DNA from: a virus
Lineage: Duplodnaviria > Heunggongvirae > Uroviricota > Caudoviricetes
Virus record (IMG/VR): IMGVR_UViG_2778261641_000014
Coordinates: 1-9,545 of that record
Reading direction: 5' to 3' (one strand)
DNA length: 9,545 nt
Shown here: positions 364-9,545 of the stretch, piece by piece
Layout: each line of letters begins with the position of its first letter
How positions within the stretch are numbered: the stretch's first letter is position 1
Translations under genes and position numbers: made by a program
The notes under the pieces: generated by a model
Told to the model about the DNA's origin: nothing
What the model saw: only the letters and a program-made list of their open reading frames with translations
Databases searched by the model: none

Positions 364-491
364 AATAACCAAAGTGAACTTTGGGGTGAATGCAGAAGCT
401 AATCTTCTCGGCGGAGGCGCTTTGCAATGATTACGCGACCGGAGTTAGTCGCACGGCTGTATTCACCGCCAAAGTTCATCAGGAGGTCTAT

Positions 492-875
492 ATGACACGC
501 AGAACTCAGTTCAAAGGCAATTCACGTTCTCGTCGTCGTGAGCGTTTAAAGGCAAAGGCATTAGCTAACGGCGTACTGGCCCGCGAAGAAGCAATAAGTT
601 CAGAAGTATTACACCGCCCTACTCTAAGCAGAGCGCAGATTCAGGCTAAAGGTACTCACGAAACGCCTGAGCGCATAGAAGACGCTAAGCCAATTAAGTT
701 CATGGCACAGGACGTGATCTGGCAACAGAAAGAATACAGACGTAATCTGGAGAGAGCGGCCATTGTGTACGCGAATGAGTTTGGACATAAGCAACCAGAA
801 ACTGGTGTATGTCTTCCAAATGTAGCTCTTTACGCAGCAGGCTACCGGAAATCAAAACAACTGACGGCGAGGTAA
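492..875 (+). CDS. N-like transcription antitermination protein (P22 gp24 family)
   Basis: Strong RBS AGGAGG (481-486) 5 nt before ATG 492. Arginine-rich motif NSRSRRRERLKAKA near the N-terminus; C-terminus LPNVALYAAGYRKSKQLTAR closely resembles the P22 gp24 C-terminus as I recall it. The track ORF starting at 390 is a 5' over-extension that would include boxB. Confidence 0.75.
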   Translation: MTRRTQFKGNSRSRRRERLKAKALANGVLAREEAISSEVLHRPTLSRAQIQAKGTHETPERIEDAKPIKFMAQDVIWQQKEYRRNLERAAIVYANEFGHKQPETGVCLPNVALYAAGYRKSKQLTAR

Positions 876-1103
876 GTGGTGAATCAGACATACATTCCAT
901 CATGCTTGAGAAATCTGCCAAAGCAGAAAGCAAAGCCCCGCAAGCAAGCCATAAAGGACGCTAAGTCAGAGGTTATTGATCAAGCAATACAATTGCTCAG
1001 GAAGGAGTTAAGAAGTGGCAAGCTCGAAGGAATGATGATGCCCTATCAGCGCGGATATCTATCGGCGATTAGTAAGTTGGAAGTATTGAAGAGTGAATTA
1101 TGA
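876..1103 (+). CDS. Hypothetical small basic protein (75 aa), immediate-early position
   Basis: ORF beginning at GTG 876 directly after the N-like stop, with GAGGT 866-870 as a possible RBS. Lysine-rich N-terminus. No family recognised. Confidence 0.45.
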   Translation: MVNQTYIPSCLRNLPKQKAKPRKQAIKDAKSEVIDQAIQLLRKELRSGKLEGMMMPYQRGYLSAISKLEVLKSEL

Positions 1104-1167: not shown

Positions 1168-1410
1168 ATGAGAGTAAAAACTATGGGCGCAAGCCCATTA
1201 AGCGGTCGTATTTTTCAAGGAACATTAAACACTGAAAAAGGAATGTGGGTAGGAAAGAAAGAAGATGTCACCGATCAAGCAGTTAAGGCAGTAGCCGAAC
1301 ACCTGATGATAAAAGACCAGAAATATGCATACGAAACGAAGGATGGCAAATGGCTGATAATAAGTCATCAACTGGTTGATAAATTACCAGAAGAGTTTGT
1401 TGATGGTTAA
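1168..1410 (+). CDS. Hypothetical protein (80 aa; alternative start at ATG 1183)
   Basis: ORF with a GAGAG motif upstream, lying between the N-like gene and the first intrinsic terminator. No family recognised. Confidence 0.45.
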   Translation: MRVKTMGASPLSGRIFQGTLNTEKGMWVGKKEDVTDQAVKAVAEHLMIKDQKYAYETKDGKWLIISHQLVDKLPEEFVDG

Positions 1411-1584: not shown

Positions 1585-1953
1585 ATGTCAAACATCAAAA
1601 AATACATCATTGATTACGACTGGAAAGCATCAATAGAAATTGAAATCGACCATGACGTAATGACAGAGGGAAAACTTCACCAGATTAATAATTTCTGGTC
1701 AGACTCTGAATACCGACTCAATAAACATGGCTCTGTATTAAATGCTGTATTAATCATGCTGGCGCAACATGCTCTGCTTATAGCAATTTCGAAAGACTTA
1801 AATGCATATGGTGTTGTTTGTGAGTTCGACTGGGATGATGGAAATGGTCAGGAAGGATGGCCTCCAATGGATGGTAGTGAAGGAATAAGAATTGCCGATA
1901 TCGATACATCAGGAATATTTGATTCAGATGATATGACTATCAAAGCCGCCTGA
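1585..1953 (+). CDS. Hypothetical strongly acidic protein (122 aa), low-GC gene; candidate anti-restriction / anti-defence (DNA-mimic-like)
   Basis: RBS GAGGA 1571-1575 before ATG 1585. The translation has about 22 Asp/Glu against 9 Lys/Arg, with an Asp-rich C-terminal third. The gene is visibly AT-rich compared with its neighbours and occupies the ral / gene-17 slot between N and cIII. Confidence 0.6.
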   Translation: MSNIKKYIIDYDWKASIEIEIDHDVMTEGKLHQINNFWSDSEYRLNKHGSVLNAVLIMLAQHALLIAISKDLNAYGVVCEFDWDDGNGQEGWPPMDGSEGIRIADIDTSGIFDSDDMTIKAA

Positions 1954-2028
1954 GCGCGGCTTTACCGCATACCAATAATGCTTCACGAGAGGCATTTTCG
2001 TTATGCAATCAAATATAAGGAGTTACCC

Positions 2029-2163
2029 ATGATGCACTTTCAGCTCGCGGGTAGCGGCGTCATGTCCGCTTTCTACCCGCACGAATCTGAATTATCACGC
2101 CGAGTTAAACAATTAATCAGAGCAGCAAAGAAACAACTGGAGGCGTTATGCGCAATGAAATAG
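2029..2163 (+). CDS. cIII-like protein (FtsH inhibitor family), 44 aa
   Basis: RBS AAGGAG 2017-2022 before ATG 2029. The translation MMHFQLAGSGVMSAFYPHESELSRRVKQLIRAAKKQLEAL follows the lambda CIII pattern (M-x-Y/F-x-I/L-AG ... P-x-ES-x-L-x-R) as I recall it. The upstream ATG at 1978 lacks an RBS. Confidence 0.5.
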   Translation: MMHFQLAGSGVMSAFYPHESELSRRVKQLIRAAKKQLEALCAMK

Positions 2164-2300
2164 CCATCAATCACCAGATGCTTCGTGCAGCACAGAACAA
2201 AGCAGTAATAGCCAGATTTATTGGTGATTCAAAAATGTGGCTTGAAGCAAATAAAGCGATGAAATCAGCTATCAACCTTCCGTGGTATCGCAGGAAATGA
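2148..2300 (+). CDS. Small protein (50 aa), tentatively Kil-like cell-division inhibitor
   Basis: ORF not in the supplied track because it is under 60 aa. ATG 2148 is preceded by GGAGG 2139-2143 and overlaps the end of the cIII-like ORF. The translation MRNEIAINHQMLRAAQNKAVIARFIGDSKMWLEANKAMKSAINLPWYRRK contains a FIGD.KM..EA motif that I recall from lambda Kil; this is a memory-based, tentative match. Confidence 0.4.
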   Translation: MRNEIAINHQMLRAAQNKAVIARFIGDSKMWLEANKAMKSAINLPWYRRK

Positions 2301-2467
2301 GCTTTACAGATAACTGGTCAGACGAAGAATTCATTCGTCAGATGAAAGAATTAATCGGTAACGAAGGAGATATTCATGTCACTTGCAACCACAGTGAAGG
2401 AGAGCAAGTTACAGAGACGCATGTACACGCAGCAGGCGTTAATGTATCGCCAGAAGGGAGATCGTGA
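2297..2467 (+). CDS. Hypothetical small acidic protein (56 aa)
   Basis: ATG 2297 overlaps the stop of the preceding ORF (ATGA) and is in the same frame as track ORF 2282-2467. It sits just upstream of erf, where P22 carries arf, but I cannot confirm similarity. Confidence 0.35.
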   Translation: MSFTDNWSDEEFIRQMKELIGNEGDIHVTCNHSEGEQVTETHVHAAGVNVSPEGRS

Positions 2468-2556
2468 AGGTGTTCGCGTATTTTTAAATGCGGCAAAGAC
2501 TGAAGTATTAAATCAGCGTTATTTACTTGGGCCGTGTCCATTCTGAGAACAATCAT

Positions 2557-3162
2557 ATGAGCAAAGAATTTTACGCAAGACTGGCAGCTATTCAGGAGAA
2601 TCTGAACGCGCCAAAGAATCAGTACAACTCATTCGGCAAATATAAATACAGAAGCTGCGAAGACATTCTTGAAGGCGTTAAGCCGTTACTGAATGGCCTG
2701 TTTTTATCAATCAGCGATGAAGTTGTGTTGATTGGTGATCGGTATTACGTGAAAGCCACGGCAACTATTACCGATGGCGAAAACAGTCATACAGCAACCG
2801 CTCTTGCACGAGAGGAAGAAAGCAAGAAAGGAATGGATTCTGCACAAGTTACTGGAGCTACAAGCTCTTATGCACGCAAGTATTGCCTCAATGGTTTGTT
2901 CGGCATTGATGATGCGAAAGATGCAGATACAGACGAGCATAAACATCAGCAGAGCGCAGCAGCAAAGCAATCAAAACCATCACATACACCTGAACAGGTT
3001 CTAAAAGCATTCACTGACGCAGCATTGCAGAAAAACACCGTGGAAGAGCTTAAACAGGCGTTCGCCAAAGCGTGGAAGATGCTCGAAGGCACACCGGAGC
3101 AGCAAAAAGCGCAGGACGTTTACAACATCAGACGAGACGAATTAGAAGGAGCGGCTGCTTAA
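2557..3162 (+). CDS. erf: Erf-family single-strand annealing protein
   Basis: The translation from ATG 2557 (MSKEFYARLAAIQENLNAPKNQYNSFGKYKYRSCEDILEGVKPLL ... YARKYCLNGLFGIDDAKDADTDE) closely matches P22 Erf as I recall it. The track's TTG start at 2527 is probably an over-extension. Confidence 0.85.
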   Translation: MSKEFYARLAAIQENLNAPKNQYNSFGKYKYRSCEDILEGVKPLLNGLFLSISDEVVLIGDRYYVKATATITDGENSHTATALAREEESKKGMDSAQVTGATSSYARKYCLNGLFGIDDAKDADTDEHKHQQSAAAKQSKPSHTPEQVLKAFTDAALQKNTVEELKQAFAKAWKMLEGTPEQQKAQDVYNIRRDELEGAAA

Positions 3163-3545
3163 TGGCACATTCGATTACTGTAAGACTAAACAAGCCCGCA
3201 AGAGAGTTTCAGGCCGGGGAAAATATCGGATTCAACATCCGTGCTGGCGTTCAGTATTACGATCGCCAGACAAAAAAGAAAGAATGGACAAACTACAGCG
3301 CCGTTGTATTTGCCAAGCCGGGAGCGCAAGCGGATTACTACCGTAGTGTTCTTGTTGAAGGAGGCATTGTAGAAATTACCGGAGAAAACATCAGGGTTGA
3401 TGTTTATCAGGGGCAAAATGGTCAATCAATCACTCTTGAATTACTGAATGCAAAGATTGGATTTGCAACTTCAGGAAACAGCCAACAGCAGCAAAGTAGC
3501 AATCATCAAAATCATCCTGAATACGACGATTCAATTCCCTTCTAG
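3162..3545 (+). CDS. ssb: Phage single-stranded DNA-binding protein (SSB-like, OB fold, acidic C-terminal tip)
   Basis: ATG 3162 overlaps the erf stop (TAATG). The translation ends in the canonical SSB tail ...EYDDSIPF (compare E. coli SSB ...DDDIPF) after a Q/N/S-rich linker. The track start at 3072 is an in-frame over-extension. Confidence 0.8.
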   Translation: MAHSITVRLNKPAREFQAGENIGFNIRAGVQYYDRQTKKKEWTNYSAVVFAKPGAQADYYRSVLVEGGIVEITGENIRVDVYQGQNGQSITLELLNAKIGFATSGNSQQQQSSNHQNHPEYDDSIPF

Positions 3546-3568
3546 ATTAGCAAAATAAGGATTCCATT

Positions 3569-3865
3569 ATGCCAGCGCCTCTGTATGGTGCGGATGACCC
3601 GCGCCGCTGTTCCGGCAATTCCGTATCGGAGGTGCTGGATAAATTCAGAAAAAACTACGACCTGATAATGTCGCTACCGCAGGAAACGAAAGAGGAAAAG
3701 GAATTTCGCCACTGTATATGGCTTGCAGAGAAAGAAGAACGCGAGCGAATTTACCAGACATCAATCCGACCATTCCGCAAAGCCACATATACCCACTTCC
3801 CTGAATATATCGACCCGCGCCTGCGTAATTACCGCTCACGCTATGGCGCTATCAGTAATGACTGA
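3569..3865 (+). CDS. Hypothetical protein (98 aa)
   Basis: RBS AAGGA 3557-3561 before ATG 3569. It is the first ORF after ssb. No family recognised. Confidence 0.55.
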
Positions 3866-3875
3866 GGAATTTACC

Positions 3876-4040
3876 ATGAGAGGACTTGCATACAATCCCG
3901 GCATTCTTCCGGCAGAAATGATTATTCGCCAACGCGTAAAGCCAATGCCATCGAGAGAGGAATTGCTTAAGAGAAATAGTTTCGGTTCTGTTAATGACAA
4001 CAGATATCTGAATGCGATGTGGCGGAGTGGGAAAAAATGA
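3876..4040 (+). CDS. Hypothetical small protein (54 aa)
   Basis: RBS GAGGA 3864-3868 before ATG 3876, in frame with track ORF 3723-4040 (which overlaps the previous gene and is probably over-extended). Its stop overlaps the next start (ATGA). Confidence 0.4.
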
Positions 4041-4519
4041 AACAAATGTCACTAATTGAGATGGATGGATTTCTGAAAGGTAAATGCATCCCAAGTGATT
4101 TAAAGGTTAACGAAACAAATGCTGAATATCTGGTGCGTAAGTTCGGTGAACTTGAATCAAAACTAGAAACGGCGTTGCGTGAGTGTCGTTCTGCTGGAAT
4201 CACGATTGATAACCTTGAGGCTAAATGCGCGAAGATGGCTGCTGAAAATACCTCGCTTAAGCAATCTGAGAAGGAATTTAATGACTTTTGTCGTGAGGAG
4301 TTTAGCGAATGGGAAGATGATGTTACTGAAACCCCAGCCACCGATGCTTTCCTGGCTGAAGTACGGGCGCAGGGGGTAGAGATGTACGCAGATAATCTCG
4401 AAAACGGAGCAGATGACGCAGAACGAGGTGGTTTTGATTATGCCGTTAAGTTTCTACGCAGTGAAGCGTCTGGTGTACGTTTGTTCGCCGACCAGCTTCG
4501 CAAAGGAGGCAACCAGTGA
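4037..4519 (+). CDS. Hypothetical coiled-coil protein with acidic C-terminal half (160 aa)
   Basis: ATG 4037 overlaps the upstream stop. The central region ([12 protein letters not shown] ... [23 protein letters not shown]) looks heptad-like. Track ORF 4019-4519 is the same frame with an earlier start. Confidence 0.55.
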
Positions 4520-4815
4520 CTGTATGTCTTATTGATAAACGTCGACGTGGGCAACAAATACCATCTGTTGAAATGCCGAATCACACATGGTTTTGCGTAC
4601 TTGATATCGATGGTATGGATACGTTGATCGACACTCGTCATTACTGCGATACCGCAACAGCTACTCCTGCAAAAGCAAAGAAAATGGCTGCTCTGATAGA
4701 AAACTGGACTCCACCTGATGGTTGGTGCAATGGGAATGATCGAGATTGGCACGAAAAAATGAAGGGCTATATCTGCGATTTCTTACGTAAATGCAACGGA
4801 TTCAGGGTGATGTGA
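4516..4815 (+). CDS. Hypothetical Cys/His/Trp-rich protein (99 aa)
   Basis: GTG 4516 is preceded by AGGAGG 4505-4510 at 5-nt spacing and overlaps the upstream stop (GTGA). No family recognised. Confidence 0.5.
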   Translation: MTVCLIDKRRRGQQIPSVEMPNHTWFCVLDIDGMDTLIDTRHYCDTATATPAKAKKMAALIENWTPPDGWCNGNDRDWHEKMKGYICDFLRKCNGFRVM

Positions 4816-4816
4816 C

Positions 4817-5290
4817 ATGAACAAGATTGACTATCAGGCACTGCGTGAAGCGGCAGAGAAAGCCGGTGAAGATAAGTGGCAGGCTAAAAAAATAAATGGT
4901 GATTTTTTCGTTATTCGTCACGGTAGTTATACAAGACAGCATGGCTACACATCGTATCAACCCATTGCGGAGATTGATTGTAAGCCAGTCCGGGATTTTG
5001 TTGCCAAGGCTAATCCGGCTACCGTGCTGGAATTACTGGATGAACGGGAAAGGAACCAGCAATACATCAAACTCCGCGATCAGGAGAACGAGGAAATTGC
5101 GCTAACGGTAGGGAAACTGCGTGTTGAGCTGGAAGCCGCAGAGAAGCGCATTGCTGAGCTGCAGTTGCGGGAGGTTGTGCTTCCGCAATGCTATAGCATG
5201 TTGCATCGCGTCGATTTTGACGAGCCTTACCACACTGAAATGGTTTACAGCAGCATCAGGTTCTTGAGGCACTGCACAACGCTGGAATAA
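4817..5290 (+). CDS. Ead/Ea22-like family protein (157 aa)
   Basis: N-terminal ...QALREAAEKA... and central coiled-coil ...AAEKRIAELQ... resemble motifs (QALRE, KRIAEL) that I recall from Ead/Ea22-like prophage proteins. It sits in the ea region between the recombination genes and xis. Confidence 0.6.
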   Translation: MNKIDYQALREAAEKAGEDKWQAKKINGDFFVIRHGSYTRQHGYTSYQPIAEIDCKPVRDFVAKANPATVLELLDERERNQQYIKLRDQENEEIALTVGKLRVELEAAEKRIAELQLREVVLPQCYSMLHRVDFDEPYHTEMVYSSIRFLRHCTTLE

Positions 5291-5321: not shown

Positions 5322-5891
5322 ATGAGCACTATTCCCAAAGAACGTCTGGAACAATTAGCATCTGGAAACGCATGGTATTGCGTTCAAGATGACGAAGCGG
5401 CTGAGCTGGCGCGTATCGCGCTGGCATCGCTCGAAGCGGAGCCATATGGATATGTGCATAAAGCGGCATATGAGAAAACAGGCAGTTGCGGGTTGTCGAA
5501 TGACCGTGAAGCCTATCGATACAGTTCAACTCACGTGGCCGTTTACACCGCACCGCCAGCGCCGGTATCTGTGCCTGCTGCGATGGAAATGGATGATGAC
5601 TTTGACAGCGCGTTTGAACACGGAAAAGCTGTCGGATGGAACGCCTGTCGTGCCGCTATGCTTCAGAGTCAAGGTAATTGCATTAAGGATGGTTGGATAA
5701 GCTGTAGTGATCGAATGCCGGAAGACACCAAAATGTTACTGGCATTTAGTCAAGGTGAAATCGTGGCCGCATATTGGAACTGGGTTGTAAATCCAATTGA
5801 TTACAAAAAATATAGAGCTTTCACGTATTTATCAGGAAATATCTTGGATGACGTAACTCACTGGATGCCGCTACCAGAGCCTCCACTTTGA
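5322..5891 (+). CDS. DUF551-like prophage protein (189 aa)
   Basis: RBS AAGGAGAGG 5307-5315 before ATG 5322. The C-terminal region WISCSDRMPEDTK ... VTHWMPLPEPP matches the DUF551 signature as I recall it. Confidence 0.65.
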   Translation: MSTIPKERLEQLASGNAWYCVQDDEAAELARIALASLEAEPYGYVHKAAYEKTGSCGLSNDREAYRYSSTHVAVYTAPPAPVSVPAAMEMDDDFDSAFEHGKAVGWNACRAAMLQSQGNCIKDGWISCSDRMPEDTKMLLAFSQGEIVAAYWNWVVNPIDYKKYRAFTYLSGNILDDVTHWMPLPEPPL

Positions 5892-5987
5892 AAGCGAAGC
5901 TTATACATATCTTTTACATCAGCAATCTATTGTTAATCTCCAATCAATGTTACGTTGTCATCTCACTCATGCTTTGGAGGTAGTGAT

Positions 5988-6167
5988 ATGTCTTGTCCAA
6001 AATGCGGTTCTGGAAATATTGCAAAAGAAAAAACAATGCGTGGATGGTCTGGTGATTATGTGTGCTGCGATTGCGGATACAACGACTCTAAAGACGCATT
6101 TGGAGAGCGTGGTAAAAACGAGTTTGTCAAAATTAATAAAGATCGCGAAGGCAACGGAAAAAGCTAA
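5988..6167 (+). CDS. Zinc-ribbon miniprotein (60 aa; two CxxC pairs)
   Basis: RBS GGAGG 5976-5980 before ATG 5988. The translation is MSCPKCGSG ... CCDCGY, with a lysine-rich tail. Track ORF 5955-6167 is the same frame with an upstream start. Confidence 0.5.
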   Translation: MSCPKCGSGNIAKEKTMRGWSGDYVCCDCGYNDSKDAFGERGKNEFVKINKDREGNGKS

Positions 6168-6268: not shown

Positions 6269-6613
6269 ATGTCAGATTTGGCTATGAAGGTTTTGAAATG
6301 GCAATCGACTGGCGATGTTGGCATCAGTAGCGCAACTCTTGCCTCAATCGCATGTGGACTGAAAAAGAATATCTATGGTCATAGCTTCGGTGCTCCACAT
6401 GACGCAGCAGATTTCCGACGATGCGTTGCGCTTGTCGAGCAGATTCCAGAAATCAGGGATTCATTCGACAAGGTTGCAAAGCGCGTTCCGGCATTCAAAG
6501 GCATCCTCAACGAATGGGATTCTCTCGTTGCTCTGTTGAAGTCTGAAATGAAGATACACGGAAACAAAGCACCAGAGACTTACAGAAGAATTAGCGAGTT
6601 ACGCAAGGACTAA
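6269..6613 (+). CDS. Hypothetical protein (114 aa) immediately upstream of xis
   Basis: RBS GGAGA 6257-6261 before ATG 6269. It lies between a strong terminator and the excisionase gene. No family recognised. Confidence 0.55.
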   Translation: MSDLAMKVLKWQSTGDVGISSATLASIACGLKKNIYGHSFGAPHDAADFRRCVALVEQIPEIRDSFDKVAKRVPAFKGILNEWDSLVALLKSEMKIHGNKAPETYRRISELRKD

Positions 6614-6702: not shown

Positions 6703-7050
6703 GTGGAAGAAGAAATCTTCACTCGTGAAGAGGCAGCATCGTATCTGAAGGTAGACAAAGGCACTATCACGCAGTGGATACGAAGTGGACGACTTCAGGC
6801 CGCAAAGATAAATCCAGATAAACCTAAAAGTCCATATCGCATTTGCAAGTCAGACTGCATTGCGGCGCTTAAGTCTGTGAGACACAATAGCGCGGTGAAT
6901 GCGGTTGATGTGCAGGAGGTTAAAGCATGTCAATCAAACTACGCGGTGGCACGTGGCACTGTGATTTCGTCGCGCCAGATGGATCAAGAGTTAGACGCTC
7001 TCTTGAAACATCGGACAAAAGGCAAGCGCAAGAACTTCACGATCGTCTGA
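6703..7050 (+). CDS. xis: Excisionase (HTH-type Xis / AlpA-like DNA-binding domain), overlapping int
   Basis: GTG 6703 with TGGAGA upstream. The N-terminal FTREEAASYLKVDKGTITQWIRSGRLQAAKI is a typical excisionase helix-turn-helix. The ORF runs 124 nt into int in another frame, as is usual for lambdoid xis-int pairs; the true 3' end is uncertain. Confidence 0.6.
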   Translation: MEEEIFTREEAASYLKVDKGTITQWIRSGRLQAAKINPDKPKSPYRICKSDCIAALKSVRHNSAVNAVDVQEVKACQSNYAVARGTVISSRQMDQELDALLKHRTKGKRKNFTIV

Positions 7051-8087
7051 AAGCAGAAGCGTGGAGAGTAAAAAATCTCGGGGAATCACCGAAAAAGCTA
7101 TTCAAGGAAGCCTGCATACGGTGGCTGCGTGAGAAATCGGATAAGAAGTCCATTGATGATGACAAGAGCATTATATCGTTCTGGATGTTGCACTTCAGAG
7201 AAACCATTCTCTCTGACATAACAACAGAAAAAATAATGGAGGCGGTAGACGGGATGGAAAACCGCCGCCATCGCCTGAACTGGGAGATGAGCCGGGACAG
7301 GTGTTTGCGGCTTGGCAAGCCAGTGCCGGAGTATAAACCAAAGCTTGCAAGCAAAGGAACGAAGACGAGGCATCTGGCAATACTTCGCGCCATTCTCAAT
7401 ATGGCTGTTGAATGGGGATGGCTTGACAGGGCACCCAAAATATCAACACCACGCGTTAAGAATGGACGCATCAGATGGCTTACAGAGGAGGAATCGAAGC
7501 GCCTGTTTGCAGAAATTGCTCCTCATTTCTTCCCTGTGGTCATGTTTGCAATCACGACAGGCCTTCGCCGTTCCAACGTTACAGACCTTGAGTGGTCACA
7601 GGTCGATCTGGATAAGAAAATGGCATGGATGCACCCTGATGAAACAAAAGCTGGCAATGCGATCGGAGTTCCTCTTAACGAAACCGCATGCCAGATATTA
7701 AGAAAACAGCAGGGGCTCCATAAGAGATGGGTATTTGTCCACACCAAACCTGCCTACCGAAGCGACGGAACAAAAACAGCAGCGGTAAGGAAGATGAGAA
7801 CCGACAGCAACAAGGCATGGAAGGGAGCGTTAAAGCGGGCAGGCATTAGCAACTTCCGCTTCCATGACCTGAGGCATACCTGGGCAAGCTGGCTGGTTCA
7901 GTCCGGTGTCTCTCTTCTTGCACTTAAAGAGATGGGAGGATGGGAAACTCTCGAAATGGTTCAAAGATACGCCCACCTTTCAGCCGGGCATCTCACCGAG
8001 CACGCGAGCAAAATCGATGCGATTATAAGTCGCAATGGCACAAATACGGCACAAGAGGAGAACGTAGTTTACTTAAATGTGAGGTAA
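6927..8087 (+). CDS. int: Tyrosine site-specific integrase (P22 Int / DLP12 IntD family), 386 aa
   Basis: Strong RBS AGGAGG 6914-6919 before ATG 6927. Catalytic-domain motifs TGLRRSN ... HDLRHTWASWLVQSGV ... LKEMGGWETLEMVQRYAHL fit the R...HxxR...Y pattern. The gene ends 14 bp before the tRNA 3' end. Confidence 0.9.
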   Translation: MSIKLRGGTWHCDFVAPDGSRVRRSLETSDKRQAQELHDRLKAEAWRVKNLGESPKKLFKEACIRWLREKSDKKSIDDDKSIISFWMLHFRETILSDITTEKIMEAVDGMENRRHRLNWEMSRDRCLRLGKPVPEYKPKLASKGTKTRHLAILRAILNMAVEWGWLDRAPKISTPRVKNGRIRWLTEEESKRLFAEIAPHFFPVVMFAITTGLRRSNVTDLEWSQVDLDKKMAWMHPDETKAGNAIGVPLNETACQILRKQQGLHKRWVFVHTKPAYRSDGTKTAAVRKMRTDSNKAWKGALKRAGISNFRFHDLRHTWASWLVQSGVSLLALKEMGGWETLEMVQRYAHLSAGHLTEHASKIDAIISRNGTNTAQEENVVYLNVR

Positions 8088-8101: not shown

Positions 8102-8177
8102 TGGTGCCGATAATAGGAGTCGAACCTACGACCTTCGCATTACGAATGCGCTGCTCTACCAACTGAGCTATATCGGC
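8102..8177 (-). tRNA. thrW: tRNA-Thr (anticodon CGU), thrW-type; prophage attachment site
   Basis: The reverse complement of 8102-8177 folds as a cloverleaf: acceptor GCCGATA, D-arm GCTC/GAGC, anticodon loop TTCGTAA (anticodon CGT), T-arm GGTTCGACTCC, 3' ACCA. 76 nt, matching E. coli thrW as I recall it. Confidence 0.9.
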
Positions 8178-8291: not shown

Positions 8292-9545
8292 TTACGCACG
8301 AATGGTGTAATCACCAATGCCGATCCACTTGTAAGTGGTCAGTGCTTCCAGCCCCATTGGGCCACGCGCGTGGAGTTTTTGTGTGCTTACCGCCACTTCC
8401 GCACCCAGACCAAACTGGCCGCCGTCGGTAAAACGCGTAGAGGCGTTAACGTAAACAGCGGACGAATCCACTTCGTTAACAAAACGCTGGGCGTTGCGCA
8501 TATCGCGGGTCAGGATCGCATCGGAGTGTTGTGTGCCGTGTTCACGAATATGGGCGATGGCATCGTCAAGATCGCTGACGATTTTGACGTTCAAATCTAA
8601 TGACAGAAACTCATCGTCATACTCTTCGGCTTTAACAGCAACCACCTTCGCAGGGCCTGCCTGCAACTGCGCCAGTGCAGCTGCATCTGCGTGTAATGTC
8701 ACGCCGCTTTCCGCCATTTGTTTGCTTAATGCGGGCAGGAAGCTATCGGCGATGTTTTTATTCACCAGCAACGTTTCAACCGTATTACATGTGCTCGGAC
8801 GCTGAGTTTTCGCGTTGACGATCACTTTTAATGCTTCAGCGATCTCTACACTTTCATCAACGTAAATATGGCATACGCCTATACCACCTGTGATCACCGG
8901 GATTGTCGACTGTTCACGGCACAGTTTATGCAAACCAGCGCCACCACGCGGGATCAGCATGTCGATGTATTTATCCATACGCAGCATTTCACTGACCAGC
9001 GCACGGTCAGGATTATCAATCGCCTGCACGGCACCCGCCGGTAAGCCGCAGGATTTCAGGGCGTCCTGAATCACCGCCACCGTTGCAGCGTTAGTGCGAC
9101 ACGTTTCTTTGCCACCGCGCAGGATCACCGCATTACCGGTTTTCAGGCACAGCGAAGCGACATCAACCGTCACGTTCGGGCGCGCTTCATAAATCACGCC
9201 AATAACCCCCAGCGGTACGCGACGACGCTCAAGACGCAGGCCGCTGTCCAGTACGCTGCCATCGATTACCTGCCCCACCGGATCGGCGAGGTTACACACC
9301 TGGCGCACATCATCGGCAATGCCTTTCAGCCGTGCGGGCGTCAGTGCCAGACGGTCAAGCATCGCTTCGCCAAGGCCATTGGCACGCGCGTCAGCAACAT
9401 CCTGGGCGTTAGCGTTGAGGATGATTTCGCTTTGTGCTTCCAGTTCATCGGCGATTTTTTCCAGCACGCGATTTTTTTCGCGGCTGGAGAGTTGCGCTAA
9501 TTTATACGAGGCTTGCTTCGCGGCAATGCCCATTTGTTCCAGCAT
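8292..9545 (-). CDS. proA: Gamma-glutamyl phosphate reductase (glutamate-5-semialdehyde dehydrogenase), complete, 417 aa
   Basis: Full-length minus-strand ORF whose translation ([38 protein letters not shown] ... [12 protein letters not shown]) is recognisable as E. coli ProA. The start codon is the last three bases of the window. Confidence 0.95.

Follow-up and report, generated by a model that had tools for sequence, protein, structure and literature searches.

The abc2 gene has been the subject of genetic and biochemical work since the 1980s and is routinely annotated. In P22, a phage of Salmonella, it follows erf, with abc1 in between, and directly precedes the DUF2737 gene orf56. For P22 Abc2 in complex with E. 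coli RecBCD, a cryo-EM model that reaches approximately residue 66 describes an extended alpha-helical protein bound to RecC's inactivated-helicase domains that recognise Chi, beside the latch helix and the channel through which the post-Chi ssDNA loop is proposed to exit, and a RecC helical bundle (residues 252-294) is displaced by it (PMC9836394). The helicase and unwinding activity of RecBCD is essentially unchanged, and the protein co-purifies with the host protein PpiB, which is recruited via Pro68 (PMC9836394). The same paper summarises earlier work in which RecBCD-dependent recombination was lost upon expression of Abc2 while the exonuclease stayed active, and in which the normal recombination output, dependent on Chi and on RecA, was abolished by Abc2; the modified enzyme has lost its Chi response and is somewhat like a constitutively Chi-activated complex (PMC9836394). 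Lambda Gam and T7 gp5.9 have a broadly similar role, being small early phage proteins that target RecBCD and protect or promote the recombination of phage DNA (PMC12315714, PMC9836394). They differ from Abc2, however, in having no sequence relationship to it and the opposite charge, in their site of action (the RecB arm and the DNA entry site, as opposed to RecC's Chi-recognition domains), and in their outcome, which is full inhibition where Abc2 reprograms the enzyme and leaves its helicase in place (PMC9836394).

When we analysed a window of 9,545 nucleotides, meaning the whole stretch of DNA, we found that the open reading frame 3569..3865 (+ strand; ATG start, 98 codons and a stop) encodes a full-length member of the Abc2 family. 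Residues 1-98 of the product align with positions 1-97 of the 97-position Pfam profile PF11043 (Bacteriophage P22 anti-RecBCD protein 2) with a score of 210 bits and an E value of 4.4e-63, the cutoff of that family being 25 bits. The product is also matched by PHROG 656, "abc2 anti-RecBCD" (E 1.2e-56), and its sole match in the PDB is chain A of 8B1T/8B1U, "Anti-RecBCD protein 2", which aligns end to end (E 1.8e-57). The first-pass annotation had described this frame as an orphan of no recognisable family, a description that these matches overturn. It had also reasoned from the synteny with P22 that a functionally analogous modulator of recombination or of RecBCD might be encoded here; this reasoning was sound and the functional call stands, but the relationship is one of homology rather than of analogy, since the gene is abc2 itself and its product is 94-95% identical to P22 Abc2. 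Indeed, the family returned by the profile search that it had proposed was the suspected one and not an unrelated one. We put at about 95% the probability that the frame is abc2 itself, carried by a lambdoid prophage as part of an HK97/P22-type recombination module in its leftward early (PL) operon, and that its product would act as P22 Abc2 does.

Relatives of the protein were found by tblastn in 226 phage records, in 225 of which at least 80% of the protein is covered. The Escherichia phage mEp506 encodes an identical protein (100%), and the identity is 96-99% in the E. coli lambdoid phages HK542, Sf101, HK633, mEpX2, HK629, HK544, HK75 and others. A more distant group, comprising ST104, SE1Spa and Stx-converting phages, shows 62-67% identity by tblastn and 63-68% in a multiple alignment. 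Among 5426 complete E. coli genomes, 1101 carry abc2, under the PGAP name "phage anti-RecBCD protein". The ratio of nonsynonymous to synonymous substitution (dN/dS) between this copy and others ranged from 0.11 to 0.43 over five comparisons, with values of 0.11 against P22, 0.14 against HK75, 0.26 against ST104 (dS 0.88) and 0.43 against an Stx2-phage copy, and the gene is under purifying selection. Because dN/dS is low and full-length homologues occur in those 225 phage records, we consider the frame a real gene and not a chance one. At the level of the gene there is no novelty: the family is known, the identical protein is already in a public phage genome, and the difference from the Abc2 proteins of HK97 (gp39) and HK75, both 97% identical to the one encoded here, is essentially nil.

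The immediate surroundings of the gene fit an independently translated member of a longer transcript. The nearest in-frame stop upstream of the ATG is at 3548, so that a longer form of abc2 is ruled out, and the translation initiation region read from the sequence (3553..3568, + strand) holds a Shine-Dalgarno-like AAGGA 7 nt 5' of the ATG: taAGGAttccattATG. The stop codon of the preceding ssb-like gene is at 3545, leaving a gap of 23 nt. The ribosome-binding site and the lack of overlap with ssb had both been pointed out in the first-pass annotation and hold, as does the presence in the protein of the peptide that it quoted. Its description of the product as basic and rich in charged residues is right as to charge (12 R, 6 K, 10 E and 6 D); the protein is basic, though only mildly so, with a pI of 8.58 and a net charge of about +1.7 at pH 7. 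A scan for promoters and + strand terminators revealed nothing convincing in the interval between ssb and abc2, which is consistent with co-transcription of the two genes; the number of such sites around abc2 was no higher than in shuffled sequence. Most simply, then, abc2 belongs to the PL transcript and has a ribosome-binding site of its own. Two other frames overlap it, one on the opposite strand (3645..3839) and one in another frame (3723..4040, extending upstream of the ATG at 3876); these were set aside, as the abc2 frame is the conserved one and the one under purifying selection.

The comparison with P22 Abc2, residue by residue, places all of the differences in one part of the protein. 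Overall identity is 93.9% by tblastn and 95% in the multiple alignment, the P22 protein having 97 amino acids and the present one 98. Residues 1-64 are identical in the two proteins, whereas residues 65-98 contain the changes A65S, K76H, I78P, an inserted Y80, D87N and N98D. Since the structural model ends at approximately residue 66, the part of the protein seen to contact RecC, in the N-terminal helical region, is conserved but for A65S, the sole change within residues 1-66. The C-terminal third (residues 65-98) of P22 Abc2 was not resolved on RecBCD. The structure places Pro68 of the P22 protein in the PpiB active site, the substitution P68A resulting in the loss of PpiB co-purification (PMC9836394). 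This proline is present in the protein studied here and is the same in each of the six members aligned, where it forms part of a conserved R-P-x-R-K-A-T motif. One N-terminal and one C-terminal stretch are likewise invariant even in the relatives that are only 63-68% identical. The additional tyrosine at position 80 (PEYIDPRL) is found in the alignment in the Stx-phage type and is absent from HK97 and HK75.

Around abc2, the order kil, small ORF, erf, variable gene, abc2 and DUF2737 gene is common to our window, P22, HK97, HK75 and ST104, and abc2 occupies here the same position as in P22. The erf gene (2557..3162, + strand) encodes a single-strand annealing protein of family PF04404 (ERF; E 5e-44) that shares 197 of 201 residues with HK97 Erf and 151 of 200 with P22 Erf. 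Downstream of abc2, the DUF2737 gene (3876..4040, + strand; PF10930, E 2e-29), of the P22 orf56/HK97 gp38 type, has a product identical to HK97 gp38 at 52 of 54 residues and to P22 orf56 at 38 of 53, and it is followed by a gene for an HK97 gp37-like protein recognised by PHROG (4037..4519, + strand). What differs is the gene that separates erf from abc2: P22 and ST104 have abc1 there, HK75 has a classical SSB gene, and HK97 and our window have a gp40-type SSB gene. At the DNA level, HK633, mEp506, HK544 and HK97 are 95-98% identical to the stretch from position 2400 to about 4520, which runs from erf through the gp40-type SSB, abc2 and DUF2737 genes to the gp37-like gene.

The variable gene (3162..3545, + strand) matches PHROG 44 (single-strand DNA binding; E 2e-28), and 120 of its 126 aligned residues are those of HK97 gp40. 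The latter has been named "SSB-1b" and is structurally SSB-like, according to its predicted structure only (PMC12315714). The product had no Pfam match and its match to TIGR00621 was below threshold. It is no classical SSB, and its acidic tail (...PEYDDSIPF) resembles the tips of bacterial SSB proteins. We considered a diverged abc1 as the identity of this gene and ruled it out, given that the best local alignment with P22 Abc1 comprises 7 identities in 14 residues while the identity with HK97 gp40 is 95%. The P22-type four-gene system (arf, erf, abc1 and abc2) is thus incomplete here in lacking abc1, and the replacement of abc1 by a gp40-type gene makes the module one of the HK97 type and not of the P22 type, which has no bearing on the membership of the protein in the Abc2 family.

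Upstream of erf, a small gene of the Rec module (2297..2467, + strand; PHROG 2123) encodes a protein identical to Gp33 of HK75 at 56 of 56 residues. HK75 Gp33 has been reported to be sufficient to trigger the toxicity of the P2 defence protein OLD and has been proposed as a new RecBCD manipulator (bioRxiv 10.64898/2026.07.10.737580). The gene overlaps a 56 amino acid ORF in another frame (2376..2546, + strand); in HK97 both parts form a single ORF of 83 amino acids, from which our window and HK75 differ by two 1-bp deletions. Where its DNA has diverged, the downstream part (2376..2546) is nevertheless conserved as protein, with 26 of 48 residues kept, and the pair may encode two proteins or, by a frameshift, a single product. 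The resemblance of the small ORF upstream of erf to P22 Arf is faint, amounting to 8 of 17 residues with a common "SDEEFI" at the N-terminus.

As residues 1-64 are identical to those of P22 Abc2 and Pro68 is kept, the protein would be expected to act on RecBCD in the same way as its P22 counterpart. In P22 itself, full activity requires Abc1 and Arf as partners. What counts against an equivalent action here is that Abc1 is absent and has a divergent SSB in its place, and that the Arf resemblance of the upstream ORF is so slight. Judging by the prototype, Abc2 would reprogram RecBCD and not block it, in which case the mutants of T4 gene 2 whose plating the first-pass annotation had suggested as a test may stay restricted even when the protein is fully functional. 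According to the Murphy model, Abc2 would hijack RecBCD as a resection engine for phage recombination, and the loading of recombinase would be diverted from RecA to Erf, which in our window is encoded two genes upstream. By the authors' account this model is a hypothesis, for P22 as well (PMC9836394). When the Pfam and PHROG matches of the module ORFs were inspected, no exonuclease family was detected, and a modified RecBCD that feeds ssDNA to Erf would explain a module without an exonuclease of its own. The model also fits a survey in which every RecBCD-inhibitor gene (gam or abc2) was accompanied by a recombinase gene in the same phage (PMC3784561).

A more particular possibility is that Abc2 of the HK97 type works without Abc1 and together with SSB-1b and the Gp33-like protein, its C-terminal third (residues 65-98, including H76, P78 and Y80) serving as an adaptor that would hand the ssDNA made by RecBCD to those partners. 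We consider this unlikely, and the C-terminal differences from P22 may simply be neutral; if true, it would represent a partner-specific variant of the Abc2 mechanism. The questions of Erf loading, of the role of PpiB and of the C-terminal third are general to the Abc2 family and none is specific to this locus, for which we assign a low probability to any novelty. The finding carries little weight as a discovery, considering the existing Pfam family, the cryo-EM structure on RecBCD and the identical protein in a deposited phage genome. Its useful outcome is a corrected annotation, that of an HK97-type module (erf, SSB-1b and abc2) in a lambdoid prophage integrated at thrW.

Two other explanations of the gene were weighed. 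The historical name "anti-RecBCD", like the suggested T4 gene 2 plating, would suit a full inhibitor in the manner of Gam or gp5.9, that is, a DNA mimic that blocks the DNA-end site of RecBCD and turns off both nuclease and helicase, and abc2 occupies the slot of the Rec module that gam holds in lambda. The parallel loci are described in bioRxiv 10.64898/2026.07.10.737580. The charge of the protein, however, is contrary to such a mimic, as the net positive Abc2 (pI 8.6) stands against the very acidic gp5.9 with its pI of 4.0 (PMC9836394). Furthermore, it has no similarity to Gam (PF06064) or to gp5.9, PF11043 being the sole Pfam match at E values up to 0.1, and the P22 protein, which is near-identical, has its binding site on RecC away from where DNA enters and does not inhibit unwinding (PMC9836394). 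We therefore regard a mimic of the Gam/gp5.9 type as excluded by charge, by sequence and by the binding site of the prototype, leaving it a very small probability.

A true orphan, or a frame that is open by chance and has no conserved function, is still more improbable, to the point of being negligible. All that speaks for it is the lack of an NCBIfam model for the product, together with GenBank records in which some homologues are called "hypothetical protein" or bear other names. The former is a gap in that library and no sign of an orphan gene, and against both stand full-length matches to curated Pfam and PHROG families, the solved structure of a relative, the 225 phage records with a well-covered homologue and the evidence for purifying selection; family matches, conservation and selection together exclude it.

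The window holds, on its + strand, the leftward early arm of a prophage of the lambdoid type, which is integrated at thrW and adjoins proA. The tRNA-Thr (CGT) gene thrW lies at 8102..8177 on the - strand, 15 nt after the putative integrase gene, and is the classical P22-type attachment site; proA (8292..9545, - strand) runs off the end of the window. The host is E. coli-like, as shown by the matches of this flank with proA and thrW to E. coli genomes, whereas that of P22 is Salmonella. The best coverage of the window by any of the 5426 complete E. coli genomes is about two thirds (~67%), and the mosaic combination that it carries is not represented among them, as expected of a mosaic prophage. 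Phages encoding Abc2 have been reported to avoid Chi. The window contains 0 Chi sites (GCTGGTGG) where 0.24 would be expected by chance, a number too small to be informative.

The early arm begins with a gene for an N-like antiterminator (390..875, + strand). Because the match of its product to the N peptide family starts only at residue 33, the true start is probably the internal methionine at residue 35 (MTRRTQFKGNSRSRRRERLKAK..., with an arginine-rich motif) and not the ATG at 390. It is followed, all on the + strand, by a phrog_5305 gene to which no function is assigned (876..1103), genes of families DUF7446 (1168..1410) and DUF2528 (1585..1953), cIII (1978..2163), kil (2148..2300) and, immediately upstream of erf, two small overlapping ORFs (2282..2546). 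Beyond the gp37-like gene, again on the + strand, Pfam families identify genes for DUF7739 (4516..4815), Ead/Ea22 (4817..5290) and DUF551 (5322..5891). A small zinc-ribbon protein of 70 amino acids with two CxxC pairs (CPKCGS...CCDCG) is encoded at 5955..6167; its score for the Lar restriction-alleviation family is below threshold (22.5 bits for a cutoff of 28.6) and it belongs to PHROG 2945, of unknown function. A phrog_1229 gene, also without an assigned function, lies at 6269..6613. The last two genes before thrW, both on the + strand, are a putative excisionase gene (xis, 6703..7050, 115 amino acids) and a putative integrase gene (int, 6927..8087, 386 amino acids), the former overlapping the start of the latter by 124 nt. 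Both were read from their position and arrangement and from PGAP annotation, the matching E. coli stretch carrying the PGAP name "site-specific integrase" for int. Their overlapping arrangement is the same as that of the helix-turn-helix gene and the site-specific integrase gene of HK75.
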